A DNA stretch of 37,282 nt. Origin: a virus (taxonomy: Duplodnaviria > Heunggongvirae > Uroviricota > Caudoviricetes). The notes below the pieces were generated by a model. That model was not told the origin of the DNA. It made no database searches and saw only the letters and a program-made list of their open reading frames with translations. The position numbers were made by a program, and so were the translations under genes. Shown here one piece after another: positions 1 to 37,282 of this stretch (positions are counted from its first letter, which is position 1; every line of letters begins with the position of its first letter). Location of the stretch: the IMG/VR virus record IMGVR_UViG_2778261667_000009; one strand, written 5' to 3'.

Positions 1-297
1 TTAACGGATCAACAGCCAGACCAGCAGACACGCCACCATCGGCACAGCAAAATCCATCAGGCTTGCCACATCCCATACACGTGGATCAAAACCGCCCCAC
101 CACGGCATGTTGCTACGTTTCCCTTTCCCAAACTTTTCTATCCAGCGATATTCTGCCTGGGTGTGTTCACGCGCAATGAAGAACGTACAACCAGCTATCG
201 CTCCGTAAGCCCAGTATCCTGTTATTATTCCGACGAAACATTGCACAATTATTGATGCAATAGCATGGATAAAAGGAGAATAGTCAATCTTATTCAT
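1..297 (-). CDS. Small hypothetical membrane protein (98 aa), translationally coupled to the tailspike
   Basis: Complete ORF with stop at 1-3; its ATG overlaps the tailspike stop (ATGA). Two hydrophobic segments and a Trp-rich loop. No family recognised. Confidence 0.4.
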   Translation of the reverse strand: MNKIDYSPFIHAIASIIVQCFVGIITGYWAYGAIAGCTFFIAREHTQAEYRWIEKFGKGKRSNMPWWGGFDPRVWDVASLMDFAVPMVACLLVWLLIR

Positions 298-3053
298 CAG
301 AATGGCACCGTTTCAATAATCACACAGGGGCGCATTACATCCCCCATGCGGTTCTCAAGATACAGATAACCAGCACCATTTGGTGGCATAAATGATACGG
401 TGAATTTACCATCTGATCCCGTTGTACCAGTTAAGACAGATGAACTAAGTTCCACGTTAATTTTGTTAGACGACTGTTGTGGTGCAAAGTCTTTATCCGA
501 CGATACTCCAAGCAACATCCCAACCGCCCTATAATTTCTGTCTCGTTCATGGTCGAATAAAGAAACTATAGCCATTTTGGTTTTTGTCGAAATAGGTATG
601 CGCAGTGCCTGATCGTCGTTCAGGGTGGCAAAGAACTTATTGTCTCCCAGCCTGACAAACTCACCAGGGTTTATGATTTGCGCCGTGCGCAGGTCATACA
701 TACTGAACTGATTAGCTGCGCCACCGTCAAGATAGAATCGGTTTCCACCCTGATCGGAGATGTTTTTAAGAACCTTGGTCCCCTCACAGCGAATAAATGA
801 GAACTCATCATTCCCTGTATCCTGAGAGGATACGTAAACTACATTTCCGCCAATGATCAGGTTTTCTAATGTCAGCGCGTCACCGGCCCCGGACGCAATA
901 ATCCCAGCCAGCGTGACCTTTTTACCTATTGAGTTTTTCAGAGTGACTGGCAAGGTGCGAATATAGCCGTCATCTGCTCCACAGAACAATTCCAGCAACC
1001 CAATTGCTCGATAATAGGGTCTGGTGTCTGTGCTGTAACTATCTGCATAGTTGTACCCAATCTCGGTAAACGTGTCGTCATACACGAGGCCGTCTATTGT
1101 CAGCCCTCCTCCGTAGGTAAGGCGAGCGCAGCAGCGCGCCACATAACCGTGCACACGACAATCTTTGAGTGTTTCTCGCAAACCACGGAACGCGTATGGC
1201 AGCCAGCAATCAACGACTAAGCAATTTGTATAGTTGGAGCCGTATGCCGCTCCATGTGACCCCATACCCGAATTTTGGGTTTTGCCTACAGGCCAGAAAG
1301 CAGTTCCGGTATAGTCAACGCCTCCACCAGAGACGACGCTATTCACAACTTGCGTCTCCCAACTAATCATCTGCGCACCGATAATATCGATACCGCGACG
1401 GCAGCGATATGTCTTAACATTTTCAACCATGGCACCGAAACACTGGTTGATGCTAATTCCGTATCCTGTCCCATTCCAAGTATCATAACCTCGGTTTGCA
1501 TCCATCGCGGTAACATCGCGGAGCACAGGAAGGTATGATCCTCGTACACGCAGACAGGTGTCAGAAAAACCACTAACAGTTATACCCTCTATCAATGTAT
1601 CGGTAGAATACAATACATCCAGCCCTCTGAATCCAACGTCACCGGCCTTAGCATTGCTAGTGAGCTCGCGTGAAATAACAAACGCTCCTGTCATTTTAAA
1701 CGTAATAGGTTTGGATATGGTAACTACAGTCGCCCATTCCATCTTGAACTGATCTCCAGCAGCTGGAATGTTATTGAAAGCAGACTGACGACCACCGATT
1801 GTCAACAAGTTTCCGCTATAATGCGAAATGTATCTGGATTGACCAGCATTAGCGCCAGTTGTGAACGTAATACGGACATTTGCATTTTCGCGGGTCAATG
1901 TTATACCTGAAACTGTAAATGAAGCGCCGCTAGTTGCCGCTGTAACGGTTCCATATTGTATGTTTGACGCCGGAGCGGCATACCGCAACGTGTTGCACAG
2001 GCCAACACGCTTTGTAGCGTGATTTACAGATGAGACTTTGCAAACCTGCCCCTCTATATCCTGTCCACGATTATCTGTCTGAATTAGCCTGGATGTCTGG
2101 AAGCAAACGAGATCCCCGACTTCAATATCAGCAGTATCGGATAGGGTAACAACACCAGCATTTCTGGCAGCATCAACTACGAGGTTAACTTGTTTTAAAA
2201 ATACCCCTCGTATACGAATAGCGTAATCCGCGTCATAATTAGTAGCGTCAGGTGTGACTTTAGTGCTAACAAGGTGTACCCGCCCGTTCGCAATCCATTC
2301 AGTTACAGCTTGGCTATCTTGGGATCGCTTGACATGAATTGACGTATAATTATACACACCTTGTTCAAACACCAGTCTGCGCCCCTCATCTACTGCTACC
2401 TGAGACGCTGCCTGAATCGGGATTGTGTAGTCAGAGATTCCATCTCCCTGTTCACAGAACCACAACAATAAAATATCGCCATCATATTCCCGCTTCCATC
2501 GCCTACCGATAGCGTCGACCAATACAGTACCTCCATTATCATCAGTGGTTGAGTCGGTATCGTCACGCACGAATATGCCATCTCCACCATCGTTAATTAC
2601 AGAGCGTCCATAGCACTGGATTTTAATTCCTGCGCCAGAGTACGAACGGATGTCGTCGTAATTTCCCGCACCTATAAGCGACGCCCCACCAACCCCAGCT
2701 AATTCCATACTGAACTGATCAGGGTCATATTTAAGAACATTAGGAAAATAGAACTGCTGCGTGCCATATGCATCATATACAGCCATAGAATGGCCTTGCA
2801 CAGTTACAAACTTGGCAATCTGTCCGTTATATACCGGATATCCGGCAGCGTTAATGATGATTGGTTGAGATACAGGAACGTGAGAACCGTCTTCATTCTC
2901 CACATAAACCTGAATCTGGTTTTCTGGATTTACCGGGTCAGTGTCAATTTTACCGATATAAATTTTGCCATTGGCAACTGCTTTAAAAGAGCGCGCCATA
3001 GTGAAGAGTTGCGATGGCATACTCACTACAACATTGGCTGTAATGTCTGTCAT
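297..3053 (-). CDS. Tailspike protein (P22 gp9-like head-binding N-terminus, divergent receptor-binding body)
   Basis: First ~110 aa ([13 protein letters not shown]...KYDPDQF) closely match the P22 tailspike head-binding domain as I remember it. The remaining ~800 aa are Gly/Thr/Asn-rich and beta-helix-like, unlike P22 gp9. Confidence 0.85.
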
Positions 3054-3121
3054 TTAATTTGCTCCAGATACAGAAAATCGCTGCAGCGTTGCCGCAGTGA
3101 TGCATTATTAATCAAACAAAG

Positions 3122-3743: not shown

Positions 3744-4109
3744 TCACTCCGGCTTTTTGATATGTCGCTCGCAGAACTCAACAAGCCTGCTCATTAAATA
3801 GCAGTAAGTCTCGTTGGCTCTTCCTGGTTCAACATCAACACCGACCCTTGAGCAGATATCGAATGCCATGTGAGCGCACTCATGGGCAATAGTAGATAGT
3901 TTGCCATTGAACACGCCTATCACATGCAAAACACCATTCTCGCTGCTCATTGTATGAGACGCTCCGTTGGCATCCGAGTCCTGCACGTCCACGCCAAGTT
4001 TTTGATGCAGGCGTTGCCATTCTGGAAAGTCTCTACAAAACACAATTGTACCGCTCTCAAAGAGCGGAACGAGCATCTTTGGTACGTTTCCAATGTTAAC
4101 TTTTTTCAT
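3744..4109 (-). CDS. Small HExxH protein, probable standalone ImmA/IrrE (M78)-like metallopeptidase
   Basis: 121 aa from ATG 4109 (AGGA upstream). Motif [14 protein letters not shown] resembles the M78 'FTlaHElgH' zinc-binding motif. Confidence 0.45.
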
Positions 4110-4130
4110 GGTATCCTGCACAAAACTAAG

Positions 4131-4634
4131 GAGGTTGGTGTGTCTGATTCTATGAGTTACGCTGTGCTAGTTGCCGCAACTCTATTTCTGGGGATAGGGT
4201 TGCAGATTGCGTGGTTCTTTTTTTCTAGTTTTATTAAACGTAAAAGAATTGAATCAAGGATATCTGAGATTTCTATTGCTATAGGGAAAAATGCTGAAAA
4301 TCCAGAGAATGAGGCCTGCGCACTGAATTACCTTAAAGAAAAGTTTTCCCCTGAAAAATTTGAAAACAGAATTACTGATGCTCTTGGATTGGTAATATCA
4401 GTAATTCATATGCCACTAAGTTTGCTGATAACAGTGTGGTACTTCGCCATGATCGCCGGAAGAATATTTGGTTTCATGAATATAGAGCCTGTAGTTCTTT
4501 GGGTTCCAATGATACTGCAATTGTTGTTAAGCGTTGCTATCTTTATTTTTTCTGTTTTTATAAAAATTATCTTTGGAAGATACCCAGGAGAAGCGAAGGG
4601 ATTTAATAAAGAATTCATAAAAACTATAAAATAA
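4131..4634 (+). CDS. Polytopic membrane protein, positional analogue of P22 SieA (superinfection exclusion)
   Basis: GTG start 5 nt after AAGGAGG. An N-terminal TM helix, ~50-aa soluble segment and 2-3 C-terminal TM helices. AT-rich by eye. Sits between gene 16 and mnt as sieA does in P22; homology not established. Confidence 0.45.
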
Positions 4635-23671: not shown

Positions 23672-24202
23672 TTACGATACATGGATTTTAAAAGCTGTAA
23701 AAGACCACTTCCTCAGAAGTGGCTTGCAGACTGCCCCTATAAGCAAGCGACTGTCATATTCTGCGTTCGACTCTAGCAACTCCGGTAACTGTTCGTGTGC
23801 TTGCTCCATCTTTTCCTGATGTCTAACATACCGCCTGATAATTTTTTCGGTCGTGCCTACTATATCGACAAAGTAACCTCGTGAACCCAAATTGTTTCCC
23901 CATAACTTCGTCCTGATATGCGGGAATAGATTGTAGAGCCTGATTTCGCTGCAACCTTTTAGGTTTTCTCATCAGAGTAGATATTGAGATTTATGACGGC
24001 ACGATTACTACAAAATGCAATGATCTGGCTGTACACTTAAATCCGGAACCTCGCAATCTTTTATTCCACGCAGAATACAAATGGTTCTGTACAGCTCCTT
24101 GTCCAATTTATCTCTCAGAATCCTAAAGCGGTACTTTGGCGCCCAGACTGTGTGATATTTGCAACGCCAATATACATATGATGAACTTCTGTAAAACCCC
24201 AT
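23672..24202 (-). pseudogene. tnpA: IS200/IS605-family transposase (TnpA, HuH/Y1) pseudogene, frameshifted
   Basis: N-terminal piece (24008-24202) carries W-x-CKYH-x-V-x-APKYR and a truncated HuH (PDHCIL then stop); C-terminal piece (23672-23890, other frame) carries RGYFVDIVG...YVRHQEKMEQ, matching the IS200 TnpA C-terminus. Confidence 0.6.
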
Positions 24203-24319
24203 GTCAGTTTTTCTCCTTTTACTTGTGGTGAGTAAGCAGAGATATTCAGATATGGGAATTCTTCAGGTTATAGCCTTACAGGAGCAATCACCAGCCCCCT
24301 TTGCGGTGGTTTAGAGATA

Positions 24320-24385
24320 ACAATTAAATATTAACCATAAAAATTATACCGCAAGATATAATTTTTATGGTTAATATTTAATTGT
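24320..24385. repeat. 29-bp perfect inverted repeat (hairpin) with 8-nt loop, probable IS200-type subterminal hairpin
   Basis: ACAATTAAATATTAACCATAAAAATTATA / ccgcaaga / TATAATTTTTATGGTTAATATTTAATTGT; arms are exact reverse complements, ~120 bp upstream of the tnpA remnant start. Confidence 0.8.
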
Positions 24386-24616: not shown

Positions 24617-24982
24617 ATGGATAAAAAATACACAGATAAATTAGAAGCTTGCGAGTACTTGCAAAATGTTGACATTTGGCTTGATAATGGAAATGTTGAC
24701 ATGTTTAAAGTATCAGATATTTTAAACAATCTGTTGAAATTAGGTGATTTTGAGAAATTTGACCATACACTTTCACTTTTAAAAGCTGAAAGCTTTGCAG
24801 AGAAAATAAAGTTTCGTCTTTCACGAGTTGAAAGTCAACGGGATAGTATATTACACGTTATCAGAGAAGGTGATAAGAATAAAAACCTTAGAAAAATAAT
24901 ACTAAAATCATATGACACAAAAAAAAACAGAAATAAAATCACTATTCAATATATTCTCCAGAGAAAGCGGGCTATATTTTAG
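24617..24982 (+). CDS. N-terminal fragment of a split glycosyltransferase-like gene
   Basis: 121-aa ORF with AGGA RBS; runs through the A9 tract at 24919-24927 and stops 55 nt later. Deleting one A fuses it in frame to the downstream ORF. Confidence 0.4.
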   Translation: MDKKYTDKLEACEYLQNVDIWLDNGNVDMFKVSDILNNLLKLGDFEKFDHTLSLLKAESFAEKIKFRLSRVESQRDSILHVIREGDKNKNLRKIILKSYDTKKNRNKITIQYILQRKRAIF

Positions 24983-25937
24983 GAATAACCATGGAAATCA
25001 CTACAGTTATTTTGAAGATGATTTCTTAGATTACAGCAATGCTGTAAAAAACACACTTAGAGACAAAGGTTTTGCGAAAAAACTTTTACAGCACAATCAA
25101 GAAAAATTTAGAATTCTCGATGATGCGATAGTTCATACTTTCAATCATAATTTCTATGCCATTTCAGATAAAAATGGTTATTACGACTCAACAAATGCAG
25201 CCCGTCTGGCAAAACTTAGCCATGTTAATTATATTAATAACGACAATGAAATAAGATATATTGATAAGGCTATTTTTTTGCCCATAGACCATGCATGCAA
25301 TAACTATTATCATGCTCTTAGTGAATGTTTCGGAGGATTGAAATTTATAACAGAATTACCTGATGACATTCCTATAGTCTTTACGGAAGACAGATTTAAT
25401 GTATTGGATTTTATTGCATCGCGCCTATGTATAGACCGCAAACGTTTTATTTCTATACAAACACTTGCTAATACTCGAATTAAAAAGGCACTACAATTAT
25501 ATCCATATAGTTTTAACTGGAGTGAAGATATTTTTCATTTTTTTAAAAAAATATCATACCCACAAACAACAGACTCTAAAATATATATTTCAAGGAGAAA
25601 GTCAAGCCGTGGCCCATTAAATGAATTTGAAGTTGAAAATGAGCTTAAAGAATTAGGTTTTGATATACTATACGCTGAAGACCTTGACTTTGCGCAACAG
25701 GTTTCAATTTTCTCAAATGCAAGCATCCTTATTGGCCCTCATGGCGCAGGCCTCACCAACATTCTTTTTATGCCTAAGAATAGCACCCTTATCGAAATAT
25801 TTAACAGTGAATATATCCAACCTGATTTCTATCTAAGATCTCGCCATAATAACATGAAATATGCATGTACCATTCAATTTAATAATACCTTCAATATCGA
25901 AGAGATAAAAGAAATCATAGAAAGGTGTCAAGAATAA
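24912..25937 (+). CDS. Glycosyltransferase, GT61/DUF563-like (C-terminal portion of the split gene)
   Basis: 341 aa; C-terminal region ...SRRKSSRGPLNEFEVENELKELGFDILYAEDLDFAQQVSIFSNASILIGPHGAGLTNILFMPKNSTLIEIF matches the DUF563/GT61 signature as remembered. No SD before its ATG; strongly AT-rich by eye. Confidence 0.5.
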   Translation: MTQKKTEIKSLFNIFSRESGLYFRNNHGNHYSYFEDDFLDYSNAVKNTLRDKGFAKKLLQHNQEKFRILDDAIVHTFNHNFYAISDKNGYYDSTNAARLAKLSHVNYINNDNEIRYIDKAIFLPIDHACNNYYHALSECFGGLKFITELPDDIPIVFTEDRFNVLDFIASRLCIDRKRFISIQTLANTRIKKALQLYPYSFNWSEDIFHFFKKISYPQTTDSKIYISRRKSSRGPLNEFEVENELKELGFDILYAEDLDFAQQVSIFSNASILIGPHGAGLTNILFMPKNSTLIEIFNSEYIQPDFYLRSRHNNMKYACTIQFNNTFNIEEIKEIIERCQE

Positions 25938-29256: not shown

Positions 29257-29366
29257 TATCAATTCCTATTGGTATTGCAATGAACAAATAATAGCAATGC
29301 GTATTAATCATAACAATAGCAAAACGTGTTTTGACCATCAATACGCAAGCGTATAAATTAAAACTT
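29257..29366. promoter_or_regulatory. OR/PR/PRM region: repeated ATAGCAAT/ATTGCAAT operator motifs with divergent promoters
   Basis: Minus-strand PR-like -35 TTGTTA (29316-29311), 17-nt spacer, -10 TATTAT (29293-29288). Plus-strand PRM-like -35 TTGACC (29331-29336) and -10 TATAAAT (29352-29358) ending ~8 nt before the cI ATG. Three AATAGCAAT-type motifs overlap these. Confidence 0.45.
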
Positions 29367-30059
29367 ATGAAAAAAGAAACTCTTGCTGATCGCTTAAACC
29401 TAGCGATGGAACAATCTGGAATGTCTCAAGGCGCTCTTGCAAAGGCGTCTGGCGTAGCTCAACCCACAATCTGGAGACTGACAAGCGGCAACGCGCGCGG
29501 CTCAACAAAAATTGTTGAAATAGCTAATGCATTGGGTGTTCGAACAGAGTGGCTCTCATCAGGCATAGGCCCGATGAGAAATGACGGTCAACAATTAGGG
29601 AAGCCTACTGCCAACCATCCCAAATACTTCAAGATTGACGTTCTTGATATAGAAGTGAGTGCCGGGCCGGGAGTCATCAACCGTGAGTTTGTAGAAGTTC
29701 TACGCTCGGTTGAGTACTCATTTGACGATGCTCGTCACATGTTCGATGGCAGGAAGGCAGAAAATATCCGCATCATTAACGTACGCGGTGACAGCATGTC
29801 AGGAACGATCGAACCAGGTGATCTTCTGTTCGTTGATATCACTGTTAAATCTTTCGACGGTGATGGTATCTATGCGTTTCTGTATGACGACACCGCCCAT
29901 GTAAAGCGCCTGCAAATGATGAAGGATAAGCTGCTGGTTATCTCTGATAACAAGAGCTACTCACCGTGGGACCCGATCGAGAAAGACGAGATGAACCGCG
30001 TGTTCATCTTCGGGAAAGTCATCGGGAGCATGCCGCAGACATATAGAAAGCATGGGTAG
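29367..30059 (+). CDS. cI: CI-type prophage repressor (HTH plus S24 LexA-like autopeptidase domain)
   Basis: 230 aa from ATG 29367 (track's longer form uses TTG); N-terminal HTH (MSQGALAKASGVAQPTIWRL), C-terminal GDSM and Lys-containing S24-like domain. Confidence 0.8.
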   Translation: MKKETLADRLNLAMEQSGMSQGALAKASGVAQPTIWRLTSGNARGSTKIVEIANALGVRTEWLSSGIGPMRNDGQQLGKPTANHPKYFKIDVLDIEVSAGPGVINREFVEVLRSVEYSFDDARHMFDGRKAENIRIINVRGDSMSGTIEPGDLLFVDITVKSFDGDGIYAFLYDDTAHVKRLQMMKDKLLVISDNKSYSPWDPIEKDEMNRVFIFGKVIGSMPQTYRKHG

Positions 30060-30188: not shown

Positions 30189-31328
30189 ATGGCAGCGGTT
30201 GAATTTCAATTGTCTAGGAAGATGATTGATTGGATAGCAAATTCTCAAGGAGTTTCTATCGAAACTCTTGCTGACCAAGTCATGCCCAAAAAGATTAATA
30301 AATTTCTTAACGGAGTGGTAAGTAAATCCGCAGCAGAAAAACTGGCAAAAATTGGAGGAATCCCTTTCGGTTTTTTATTTCTTGAAACGCCACCAACTCC
30401 AGCCAAACCCAAGATCCCTGACTTAAGGCAAGCTATAAATAGCCGTGAGTTAGGAAAAGATTTTTTTGATGTTTACTATGATATAGAATATAAACTTGAG
30501 TGGTACAAAGACTATTTAAGAGAAAATGGTAATGATGATCCACTCGATTTTATTGGTAAATTTAAATTTAATAGAAAATTAAATTATAAGGTTGTTGCTA
30601 CAGACATAGCAAACACAATACATTTTGATATACAAAAAGAGATAAAAAATGTCACTTTTGAGAGCTATTTTTCTAAAGTGGCAAAACTAATAGAAGACAC
30701 TGGCGTATTAGTTTTCAAGAATGGTGTTGTGGGTAATAATAATAAAAGAAAACTTGACACGCGAGAGTTTCGTGGTTTCTGTATATCTGATAGCGTTGCT
30801 CCGATCATTTTTGTAAATAGCTCGGACGCGTTATCTGCGCAGGTATTTACATTATTTCATGAGGTGGCTCATCTTTGGCTTGGAGTCGATGGAGTCTCTG
30901 GGTGGGACACAGAAAAAAACATAGAATCTTTTTGTAATAAAGTTGCTGCTGAAATCTTAATGCCTGATAATCTCTTCAAATCTTTCTGGCTTAATGCATC
31001 CAGCGATAATAATTATTATCGAGTAAAAGAGGTTTCTAAGTTATTTAAGGTTAGTGATTTCGCTTGTGCAATCAAAGCGTTACAATTAGATTTGATAGAA
31101 AGAAACACTTTGGAGATAATTAAAGATCAAGCTTACAATAAGCCCAAAAAAGAATCTAATGGTGGTTCTTTCTTTAACACATTACCTGTTCGTAACAGTC
31201 CAAAACTTACGAATATAATAATTTCCAAAGCAATGTCTCAACAATTACCATTAAGGGAAGCAGGCGTACTGCTAAATGTAAAAGCAGATACAGTTGTTGA
31301 ATTTTATAAAAAACGAGAATCTCTATGA
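30189..31328 (+). CDS. HTH-fused ImmA/IrrE-family (M78, COG2856-like) metallopeptidase-like protein
   Basis: 379 aa; N-terminal HTH-like segment, central RGFCISDSVAPIIFVNSSD...VFTLFHEVAHLWLG matching the M78 HExxH signature, plus ~120-aa C-terminal extension. AGGTGA RBS; AT-rich by eye. Confidence 0.55.
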   Translation: MAAVEFQLSRKMIDWIANSQGVSIETLADQVMPKKINKFLNGVVSKSAAEKLAKIGGIPFGFLFLETPPTPAKPKIPDLRQAINSRELGKDFFDVYYDIEYKLEWYKDYLRENGNDDPLDFIGKFKFNRKLNYKVVATDIANTIHFDIQKEIKNVTFESYFSKVAKLIEDTGVLVFKNGVVGNNNKRKLDTREFRGFCISDSVAPIIFVNSSDALSAQVFTLFHEVAHLWLGVDGVSGWDTEKNIESFCNKVAAEILMPDNLFKSFWLNASSDNNYYRVKEVSKLFKVSDFACAIKALQLDLIERNTLEIIKDQAYNKPKKESNGGSFFNTLPVRNSPKLTNIIISKAMSQQLPLREAGVLLNVKADTVVEFYKKRESL

Positions 31329-31837
31329 TTCATAATGGAAAATTCTTAATTGATAGTAATGTCTTCATAGAGGCAAAAAACTTTGCATATAACTTCAATT
31401 ATTGCAAAATATTTTGGGATTTTCTTCTCGCTTTACACATGAATGGTCTGATTTATAGCATTAATGCTGTAAAAAAAGAACTATGTGCAAAAGATGATCC
31501 ATTGTGTAAATGGATTAAAGAAGAGTTACCATCATCATTCTTCGAAGATGAGCATAGTTCAATAGAAAATTATGCAAAGTTAATAAATTGGTCAACTAAA
31601 TTAGATGTTACCGAAAAGGCAAAGTTTGACTTTGCAAGCCATGAAAAAGCAGATGCTTTTTTAATAGCCCATGCGATGACACATGGATATACTATTATTA
31701 CCCATGAGAAACCATCCGGTGGCAAACCTAAAAAAAGAATAATGATCCCGGATGCTGCTGCTTCTCACGGCGTTAAGACATTAACACTATATGAATTTCT
31801 TCCAAGATACGCTAGTCATAATTTTTCTTTGAAATAA
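31325..31837 (+). CDS. PIN-like (DUF4411-like) putative nuclease, partner of the upstream peptidase
   Basis: 170 aa; N-terminus KFLIDSNVFIEAKN is PIN-like with a first acidic residue; start overlaps the upstream stop (ATGA). Family assignment from memory. Confidence 0.5.
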   Translation: MIHNGKFLIDSNVFIEAKNFAYNFNYCKIFWDFLLALHMNGLIYSINAVKKELCAKDDPLCKWIKEELPSSFFEDEHSSIENYAKLINWSTKLDVTEKAKFDFASHEKADAFLIAHAMTHGYTIITHEKPSGGKPKKRIMIPDAAASHGVKTLTLYEFLPRYASHNFSLK

Positions 31838-35977: not shown

Positions 35978-37282
35978 ATGGCTAAGACAGCATACCCAAC
36001 AGGCGTTGAGAACCATGGCGGATCACTCCGCATATGGTTCATGTATAAAGGCACACGAGTACGGGAAAGTCTCGGTGTGCCGGATACACCAAAAAACAGG
36101 AAAATAGCTGGCGAGCTACGAGCGTCTGTTTGTTTTTCCATTAAGACTGGTAATTTCGACTATGCCGCTCAGTTTCCAGACTCTCCCAACCTGAGAAAGT
36201 TTGGTGCGGAAAGTAAGGAAATTACCGTCGCAGACCTGGCTGAGAAATGGCTGGATCTGAAAAAGCTGGAAATCAGTACCAATGCGATGGGGCGTTACAA
36301 CTCCATTGTAAGAAATATGGTTCCCCGAATCGGAGGCAACAGACTTGCATCTGCTGTGACTCAGGAAGAGCTACTGTTCATACGAAAGGATTTGCTGACC
36401 GGATATCATGTTCTGAAACGAGGGCAAAAAACACCCATTAAGGGACGCTCCGTGCCAACAGTTAATAACTACATGAACACCATGGCGGGGATGTTTCAGT
36501 TCGCAGCCGACAGCGGATACATCAAAGAAAATCCGTTTGCAGCCATTTCGCAACTGAAGAGATCACGAACGGAACCTGATCCGTTAACCCGTGATGAGTT
36601 TGTCAGGTTGATTAACGCATTTAAGCATCAGCAATTAAAAAATATGTGGTCACTGGCTGTTTATACGGGAGTTCGCCACGGGGAGTTGGTTTCTCTGGCA
36701 TGGGAAGATATAGACCTGAAGGCAGGGACAATGACGATCAGAAGAAACCACACATTAACGAAAGAGTTCACTCTTCCTAAAACCGAAGCAGGAACAAACC
36801 GTGTTATCAACCTTATTCAACCAGCAATAGACGTGCTTAAGAATCAGGCTGAAATGACTCGGCTTGGTAAGCAATATCAGGTTGAAGTGAAACTTCGTGA
36901 ATATGGTCGAACTGAAATGCATCCGTGCACTTTTGTCTTCAATCCGCAAATCGTTACGCGTAATGGCCTTGCCGGGTACCATTATGCAGTTGGGTCGATT
37001 AATCAGTCATGGGAAACTGCAATGCGACGTGCGGGGATTCGCTACCGCAAAGCATATCAGTCCAGGCACACTTATGCATGTTGGTCTTTGACCGCTGGAG
37101 CTAACCCTAACTTCATCGCGAAGCAAATGGGACACTCTGATGCTCAGATGGTTTATCGCGTTTACGGGTCGTGGATGGCAGAAAACAATCAGGATCAGGT
37201 ATCCATTTTAAACCAGAAATTGAGTGAGTTTGCCCCATCCATGCCCCACGCTGTGGGATCGGATGTAATTAAACAAGCATAG
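35978..37282 (+). CDS. int: Site-specific tyrosine integrase
   Basis: 434 aa; C-terminal catalytic signature (RHTYA..., HSD...VYRVYG) typical of tyrosine recombinases; GGAGGGA RBS; stop at 37280-37282. Confidence 0.85.
   Translation: MAKTAYPTGVENHGGSLRIWFMYKGTRVRESLGVPDTPKNRKIAGELRASVCFSIKTGNFDYAAQFPDSPNLRKFGAESKEITVADLAEKWLDLKKLEISTNAMGRYNSIVRNMVPRIGGNRLASAVTQEELLFIRKDLLTGYHVLKRGQKTPIKGRSVPTVNNYMNTMAGMFQFAADSGYIKENPFAAISQLKRSRTEPDPLTRDEFVRLINAFKHQQLKNMWSLAVYTGVRHGELVSLAWEDIDLKAGTMTIRRNHTLTKEFTLPKTEAGTNRVINLIQPAIDVLKNQAEMTRLGKQYQVEVKLREYGRTEMHPCTFVFNPQIVTRNGLAGYHYAVGSINQSWETAMRRAGIRYRKAYQSRHTYACWSLTAGANPNFIAKQMGHSDAQMVYRVYGSWMAENNQDQVSILNQKLSEFAPSMPHAVGSDVIKQA

Follow-up and report, generated by a model that had tools for sequence, protein, structure and literature searches.

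The swapping of bodies on a P22-type head-binding domain is well known among phage tailspikes, with Sf6, HK620, CUS-3 and epsilon34 as examples. Here, we describe a tailspike of 918 amino acids (aa) encoded in IMG/VR virus record IMGVR_UViG_2778261667_000009, a 37,282-nucleotide stretch of DNA (hereafter the window) that carries a P22-like prophage. The protein resembles P22 gp9, Sf6 gp14, HK620 gp9 and the CUS-3 endosialidase in its N-terminal 113 residues (76–93% identity) and in the swapped-body principle, and it shares with P22-like tailspikes both the location of its gene after the immI (mnt/arc) region and a domain boundary at the YDPDQF motif. By contrast, its body is unrelated in sequence to theirs, is ~250 aa longer than that of P22, and appears structurally nearer to lyase-type spikes than to endorhamnosidase or endosialidase bodies. 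A preliminary description of this DNA had proposed a P22-type head-binding domain fused, through horizontal exchange, to an unrelated and longer beta-helix body; the core of that proposal is supported here, including the difference from P22 gp9 in sequence and length, and we consider it very probable that the gene encodes a functional modular tailspike with a depolymerase-type body that is exchanged as a cassette. Because body exchange on a P22-type anchor is textbook, the chimera itself is unsurprising; what is new is a rare, uncharacterised depolymerase-type family with a confident model, well-defined cassette boundaries and candidate residues for the active site.

The head-binding domain was identified by PF09008, which spans tailspike residues 1–113 at model positions 1–113 of 113 (E 2e-67, 225 bits against a cut-off of 24 bits). 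It is identical to Sf6 gp14 at 105 of 113 positions (93%) and to P22 gp9 at 88 of 116 (76%), in line with the earlier claim that the first ~110 aa are P22 gp9-like. At the DNA level, the sequence from window position 2710 upward shares 82–96% identity with many P22-like phages of E. coli, Shigella and Salmonella. With both the domain and the genomic position in place, the protein is a P22-type head-binding tailspike, and residues 1–113 would attach the spike to the tail hub in the manner of P22, Sf6 and HK620. Matches to Sf6, P22 and HK620-type spikes in PDB sequences were confined to residues 1–120; past residue ~120 the same search found no solved tailspike, except for weak N-terminal matches to Pantoea stewartii WceF (6tgf, tailspike residues 7–219) and the Acinetobacter AM24 tailspike (5w5p, tailspike residues 131–220).

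The boundaries of the exchanged cassette were delimited by blastn of the window against two sequences with unrelated bodies, an E. coli prophage (L001) and phage JEP4 (L009). Window positions 38–222 are 90.8% identical to both, and the sequence from 2710 upward is 93% identical to the prophage and 82% to JEP4, while 223–2709 is non-homologous to either; a lambda-like phage (L008) is also 90.6% identical over 10–222. As homology is limited to 38–222 and 2710 upward, the exchanged unit corresponds to 223–2709, with the break on the tailspike side lying directly behind the YDPDQF motif. The chimera would have formed by homologous recombination through two probable arms, 5′ the head-binding domain and 3′ the conserved portion of the small open reading frame (ORF) downstream of the tailspike gene, a 2.5-kb body cassette being exchanged between them. 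The features of the locus are collected in Table 1.

Table 1. Positions of the tailspike gene, its domains, the exchanged cassette and other genes in the window (AF2, AlphaFold2).
Feature	Position	Strand	Basis or remark
98-aa three-helix membrane protein, phrog_1443	1..297	(-)	ORF list; phrog_1443 profile
3′ conserved arm, C-terminal two-thirds of small ORF	38..222	(-)	blastn
Exchanged cassette: tailspike codons ~115–918 and first ~25 codons of small ORF	223..2709	(-)	blastn
Tailspike gene, 918 aa	297..3053	(-)	ORF list, PF09008, many PHROG tail-spike families; stop codon 297–299
C-terminal beta-rich region, probably beta-sandwich, residues ~685–918	300..1001	(-)	AF2 secondary structure all beta
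Right-handed beta-helix with insertion domain, residues ~204–684; presumed catalytic/receptor-binding part	1002..2444	(-)	
Polar strip invariant across the family, on successive rungs of the helix; candidate active site	1185..1496	(-)	Alignments
Rider-like insertion domain signal, residues 289–346	2016..2189	(-)	PF24149 K1-lyase_Rider
Linker and small N-terminal beta module, residues ~114–203 (approximate)	2445..2714	(-)	AF2 secondary structure; weak 5w5p/6tgf matches
Head-binding (tail-attachment) domain, residues 1–113	2715..3053	(-)	PF09008
GGAG Shine-Dalgarno	3062..3065	(-)	Read from sequence; 8 nt 5′ of tailspike ATG
GT61 glycosyltransferase gene, frameshift-split; candidate receptor-modifying partner (tentative)	24617..25937	(+)	PF04577
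Integrase	35978–37282		

We then considered the fold of the body. An AF2 model of residues 120–918 (799 residues), built as a monomer with 22 homologs, reached a mean predicted local distance difference test (pLDDT) value of 89.6 and a predicted template modelling score of 0.86, and comprised a small N-terminal beta module, a capping helix, many short strands and a beta-rich C-terminal region. The series of short strands interrupted by an insertion is typical of a right-handed beta-helix, here predicted with high confidence. The beta-helix suspected in the preliminary description is borne out by the predicted fold and not by the sequence repeats from which it had been suggested: the body is indeed rich in Gly (11.3%) and Thr (8.3%), but Asn accounts for only 5.4% and no tandem repeats were found in it. 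PF24149 (K1-lyase_Rider) matched the tailspike itself weakly (E 0.027), but among 23 family members 12 gave a match, the best at E 3e-6; PF20608 gave a sub-threshold match at residues 692–743, and PF27114 (Phage_tail_beta) is assigned, in precomputed annotation, to an identical protein (P0001) and to most homologs. By analogy with other tailspikes, the protein is expected to be a trimer.

The best structural matches of the body were lyase-type tailspikes, which have an insertion domain in common with it and to which ~460–500 of the 799 modelled residues align, the unaligned part of the model apparently being mostly the C-terminal region. The next neighbours were the P560 depolymerase, a phage pectin-lyase-like protein, and alginate epimerases and lyases. 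The predicted right-handed beta-helix with an insertion ('rider') domain is shared with the group of K1 lyase, LKA1 gp49 and AP22 gp54. The NTUH-K2044-K1-1 K1 capsule lyase (7W1C) and K64-1 S2-4 are only 12–16% identical over ~500 aligned residues, show no significant profile match and lack the extra C-terminal ~230 residues; the O-specific polysaccharide lyase tailspikes LKA1 gp49 and phi297 gp61 of Pseudomonas are 14% identical, carry a T7-like N-terminal anchor and act on a Pseudomonas O5 substrate. The enzyme WceF (6TGF) is tailspike-like but belongs to an exopolysaccharide locus and forms no part of a virion; its catalytic helix is non-homologous in sequence to the present body.

Alignments of 23 and of 6 sequences, covering 28–91% identity, revealed residues N520, R521, R552, D556, Y581, H600, R623 and Y658 to be invariant across the family and placed one rung apart, and the strip from N520 to R623 (N520, R521, R552, D556, Y581, H600 and R623) may form the active site. 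In the K1 lyase, the catalytic residues are Tyr311, His373 and Arg397 (PMC8822698), and, likened by residue type, the Arg/Tyr/His-rich strip of the body is compatible with K1 lyase-type chemistry. Most likely, the body binds and cleaves a surface polysaccharide, letting the virion reach the outer membrane, and its structural neighbours somewhat favour beta-elimination (lyase) chemistry on an acidic glycan.

A body acting as a glycoside hydrolase, like the tailspikes of P22, Sf6, HK620 and CBA120, is the less likely alternative, as the best structural matches are lyase-type tailspikes with the insertion domain in common and the invariant strip is made up mostly of the residue types that form the K1 lyase triad, Arg, Tyr and His (PMC8822698). 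That the body merely binds glycan without catalysis would agree with active-site residues that are candidates only and with an activity that rests on prediction; we regard this as very improbable, given a polar strip on the helix face that is strongly conserved across 28–91% identity, close structural neighbours that are all active enzymes, and a homolog that occupies the depolymerase slot of a KP34-like phage. Several points nevertheless weigh against the favoured reading of the body as a depolymerase. Comparison of the family profile with the K1 lyase sequence by hhalign was not significant (probability 0.7%), a profile search of PDB sequences with the body family returned N-terminal modules only, no sequence homology to characterised depolymerases was detected past those modules, and the case for a capsule target, taken up below, draws on one non-phage context and annotation labels only. 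Taking these observations together, the tailspike appears fold-related to, and to work like, lyase-type tailspike depolymerases, but its membership in that group is not established, because homology in the sequence of the catalytic helix was lacking and the catalytic residues are candidates only.

The body is rare. Residues ~115–918 had no counterpart in 50,697 phage records at the DNA (megablast) or protein (tblastn) level, DNA searches recovering only the two flanking arms. Among 5,426 complete E. coli genomes, 2,585 matched one flank or both, but the body itself was missing from all of them. When 5.8 billion proteins were searched by a word index, it fell into only 25 clusters (about 25, defined at 90% identity), and an exhaustive hidden Markov model search of 1.84 billion representatives returned 114 proteins at E<=1e-30 and 805 at E<=1e-10, ~60 of the matches listed spanning most of the body length. 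No body relative was found in a scan of one genome per species (GTDB), and in IMG/VR the full length was present only in the identical contig, other matches being to the N-terminal beta module alone; a JGI metagenome scan added one further 918-aa relative. An identical protein exists in RefSeq (WP_336603102.1, named 'phage tailspike protein', unclassified Escherichia), and the tailspike is 100% identical in three Escherichia sp. MOD1-EC assemblies. No characterised phage was found to carry the body, which argues against its being simply a known tailspike with the same domain boundaries. Prophages of E. coli and E. marmotae encode a further cluster of proteins, also of 918 aa, whose body is 91% identical. 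Against one E. coli homolog of 918 aa (P0002; window 300–2696), identity varied along the body as a mosaic (98% over the first 100 residues, 74–89% in the middle and 99–100% over the last 300), which points to recombination within the body in addition to that at its ends.

The same body, 57–81% identical over its full length, stands behind several different N-terminal regions. The form bearing PF09008 belongs to P22-like prophages; forms with PF18668 (Tail_spike_N) or with Pfam-less N-terminal extensions follow GpJ in siphovirus-type prophages of Citrobacter, Phytobacter and Leclercia; a form with PF12571 lies in a P2-like baseplate cluster; PF03906, the T7-type fibre N-terminus, also precedes the body; and some homologs have almost no N-terminal extension. 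The first ~100 body residues constitute a separately exchangeable module, replaced independently in homologs P0011–P0020. One adaptor-less homolog of 757 aa (P0014; L007:10001-12274) is encoded directly after the endolysin in a 43.7-kb KP34-like metagenomic podophage contig, a position equivalent to the slot of the K1 lyase ORF34 in phage NTUH-K2044-K1-1. In addition, a 73%-identical copy of 864 aa without a phage adaptor domain (L013:4001-6595) lies in Phytobacter palmae (GCA_039409775.1) directly 3′ of the KpsC/KpsS capsule genes, with no phage genes in view, a setting that resembles that of WceF in the stewartan locus. This kps-type locus and the GT61 glycosyltransferase described below hint at a capsule-type acidic glycan, and such indirect context tips an otherwise even choice of tailspike target slightly towards capsule over O-antigen.

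Directly downstream of the tailspike, the 98-aa ORF opens with an ATG that overlaps the stop codon of the tailspike by one base (…TTC TGATG AAT…), and no terminator or convincing promoter was seen between the two. Its product matches phrog_1443 (E 9e-50, residues 4–98 on profile positions 1–95 of 97) and has no Pfam or PADLOC match; NCBIfam returned zero matches for either this protein or the tailspike. The hydrophobic segments at ~8–42 and ~77–98 agree with an AF2 model (pLDDT 92.3) of three helices at residues 7–26, 29–56 and 77–97, for which no informative structural neighbour was found. The membrane protein translationally coupled to the tailspike that had been described earlier is thus recognisable in the overlap, the hydropathy and the model, but the accompanying view that such a gene is unusual for this module does not hold, because homologs occur in 67 phage records and in 421 protein clusters with thousands of members from Escherichia, Shigella, Leclercia, Enterobacter and Aeromonas, with the same overlap after E. 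coli P22-like tailspikes. They follow unrelated tailspike bodies in Lederbergvirus JEP4 and E. coli argW prophages, tail-fibre genes in lambda-like phages, and the present body in a P2-like contig, and the stop/start overlap is kept among them as TGATG, TAATG or ATGA. The gene is therefore common and tied to receptor-binding proteins of podo-, sipho- and myovirus-type temperate enterobacterial phages, not specific to this locus. The exact protein, by comparison, is 100% identical only in GCA_002965845.1, which makes this assembly the probable source of the window; the prophage most likely stems from Escherichia sp. MOD1-EC6153.

These occurrences also bear on whether the 98-aa protein is a dedicated partner of the body, for example an assembly factor, in a two-gene cassette. 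A 98-aa homolog with the same one-base overlap does follow the body in the P2-like myovirus contig and in the E. coli 91% relatives, a remnant of one follows it in a Leclercia prophage, and the first ~25 codons of the small ORF were swapped together with the body. Such a partnership is nonetheless improbable, as proteins 72–77% identical follow unrelated tailspikes (JEP4, E. coli CB7286) and lambda-like tail-fibre genes, several body homologs lack the gene, and a polytopic membrane protein would be an improbable chaperone for a cytoplasmic spike. Our best guess is instead that the protein is co-translated with receptor-binding proteins and may serve a membrane-level accessory or exclusion role rather than being a virion component. 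A hydrophilic loop, REHTQAEYRWI..FG.GKR.NMPWWGGF, is invariant in homologs from Escherichia, Leclercia, Enterobacter and Aeromonas (alignment A4); this invariance exceeds what a membrane anchor needs and, judged from the alignment, hints at a specific binding or catalytic role. Identity with Kapi1 hyp24, which was experimentally tested for seroconversion, was rejected, hyp24 being a 34-aa ORF on the opposite strand.

The window further carries a GT61 glycosyltransferase gene that is broken at a poly(A)9 run (24919–24927) into overlapping ORFs of 121 and 341 aa, both of which can be aligned with intact homologs of 440 aa. In P22-like prophages of five E. coli assemblies, the same nin-region slot is occupied by an allele with A8, intact at 439 aa and otherwise near-identical (C-terminal 338 residues 99.7% identical). 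The gene sits in a low-GC island (GC 0.32–0.38), in which a stretch ~86% identical to E. coli IS200/IS605 tnpA lies just upstream of it (window ~23690–24330). Neither the complete E. coli genomes nor the phage records contain GT61, just as they lack the body; a search of IMG/VR found nothing, PADLOC gave no match, and no E. coli assembly among the matches listed, whose contigs are fragmented, combines an intact GT61 with the 918-aa tailspike. Distant relatives are labelled capsular biosynthesis proteins. A 331-aa ORF after P0003 was considered as a further GT61 and rejected, as it is not one.

Homologs of GT61 that are 71–73% identical, in Citrobacter freundii (L014:6846-8168) and Phytobacter palmae (L033:23-1345), adjoin tailspikes with a 61–65%-identical body in convergent orientation within siphovirus-type prophages. 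This arrangement suggests that the tailspike and a glycan-modifying GT61 work as a pair. The split gene fits a receptor-modifying conversion gene switched off by slippage, and a plain mutation or sequencing error would explain the frameshift equally well.

The remainder of the prophage is apparently complete. Mnt/Arc, a SieA homolog and the ejection proteins gp16, gp20 and gp7 are encoded immediately upstream of the tailspike, with family matches to P22_gp7, Inj_translocase, P22_gp16, SieA and Mnt/Arc; beyond them come the genes for tail, coat, scaffold, portal, terminase, lysis, Q, nin, replication and repressor. It is conceivable that the prophage is defective and its tailspike gene a relic with no current function, in keeping with the frameshift in one prophage gene (GT61) and with an IS200-like element inserted nearby, but this is extremely unlikely: all 918 codons of the ORF are intact, a good ribosome-binding site precedes it, its product is fully conserved in the three assemblies, and the P22-type structural, lysis, replication and integrase ORFs are all present at full length.

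Other genes of the window and its flank were noted. The SieA-family superinfection-exclusion homolog (~4140–4634, plus strand; PF26849 precomputed on the identical locus) stands beside a 121–125-aa ORF without a family match (3744–4121, minus strand), both between the ejection-protein genes and mnt. A low-GC two-gene island (30189–31837, plus strand) adjoining a CI-like repressor (29331–30059) codes for an M78 peptidase protein with PADLOC matches to CapP and to RmrA, a component of the RosmerTA defence system, followed by an overlapping DUF4411 protein, and is probably a toxin-antitoxin or defence moron. In the host flank past window position 1 (L003:9053-10538), ~1.4 kb without a called gene separates the small ORF from host genes for a PPC-domain protein, DUF1398, ZinT and yedF/yedE, and in a sister assembly an insertion sequence (DDE_Tnp_1) has entered this region. 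The integrase, which in E. coli argW prophages lies beside the small ORF, is here at the opposite end of the prophage.

In a broader and speculative scenario, which we hold to be rather doubtful as a whole, the tailspike body and GT61 would form a matched degrading and modifying pair that moves between podo- and siphovirus-type prophages of Escherichia, Citrobacter and Phytobacter, with the poly(A) run as a switch (A8 intact, A9 frameshifted), and the 98-aa protein would represent an undescribed accessory class linked to receptor-binding proteins in three morphotypes, acting for example in envelope exclusion. The GT61 homopolymer frameshift and the conserved 98-aa gene provide leads on temperate phages that pair receptor recognition with receptor modification, and the body family could yield an enzyme with a new glycan specificity, of use in typing or decapsulating strains of Escherichia, Citrobacter and their relatives.

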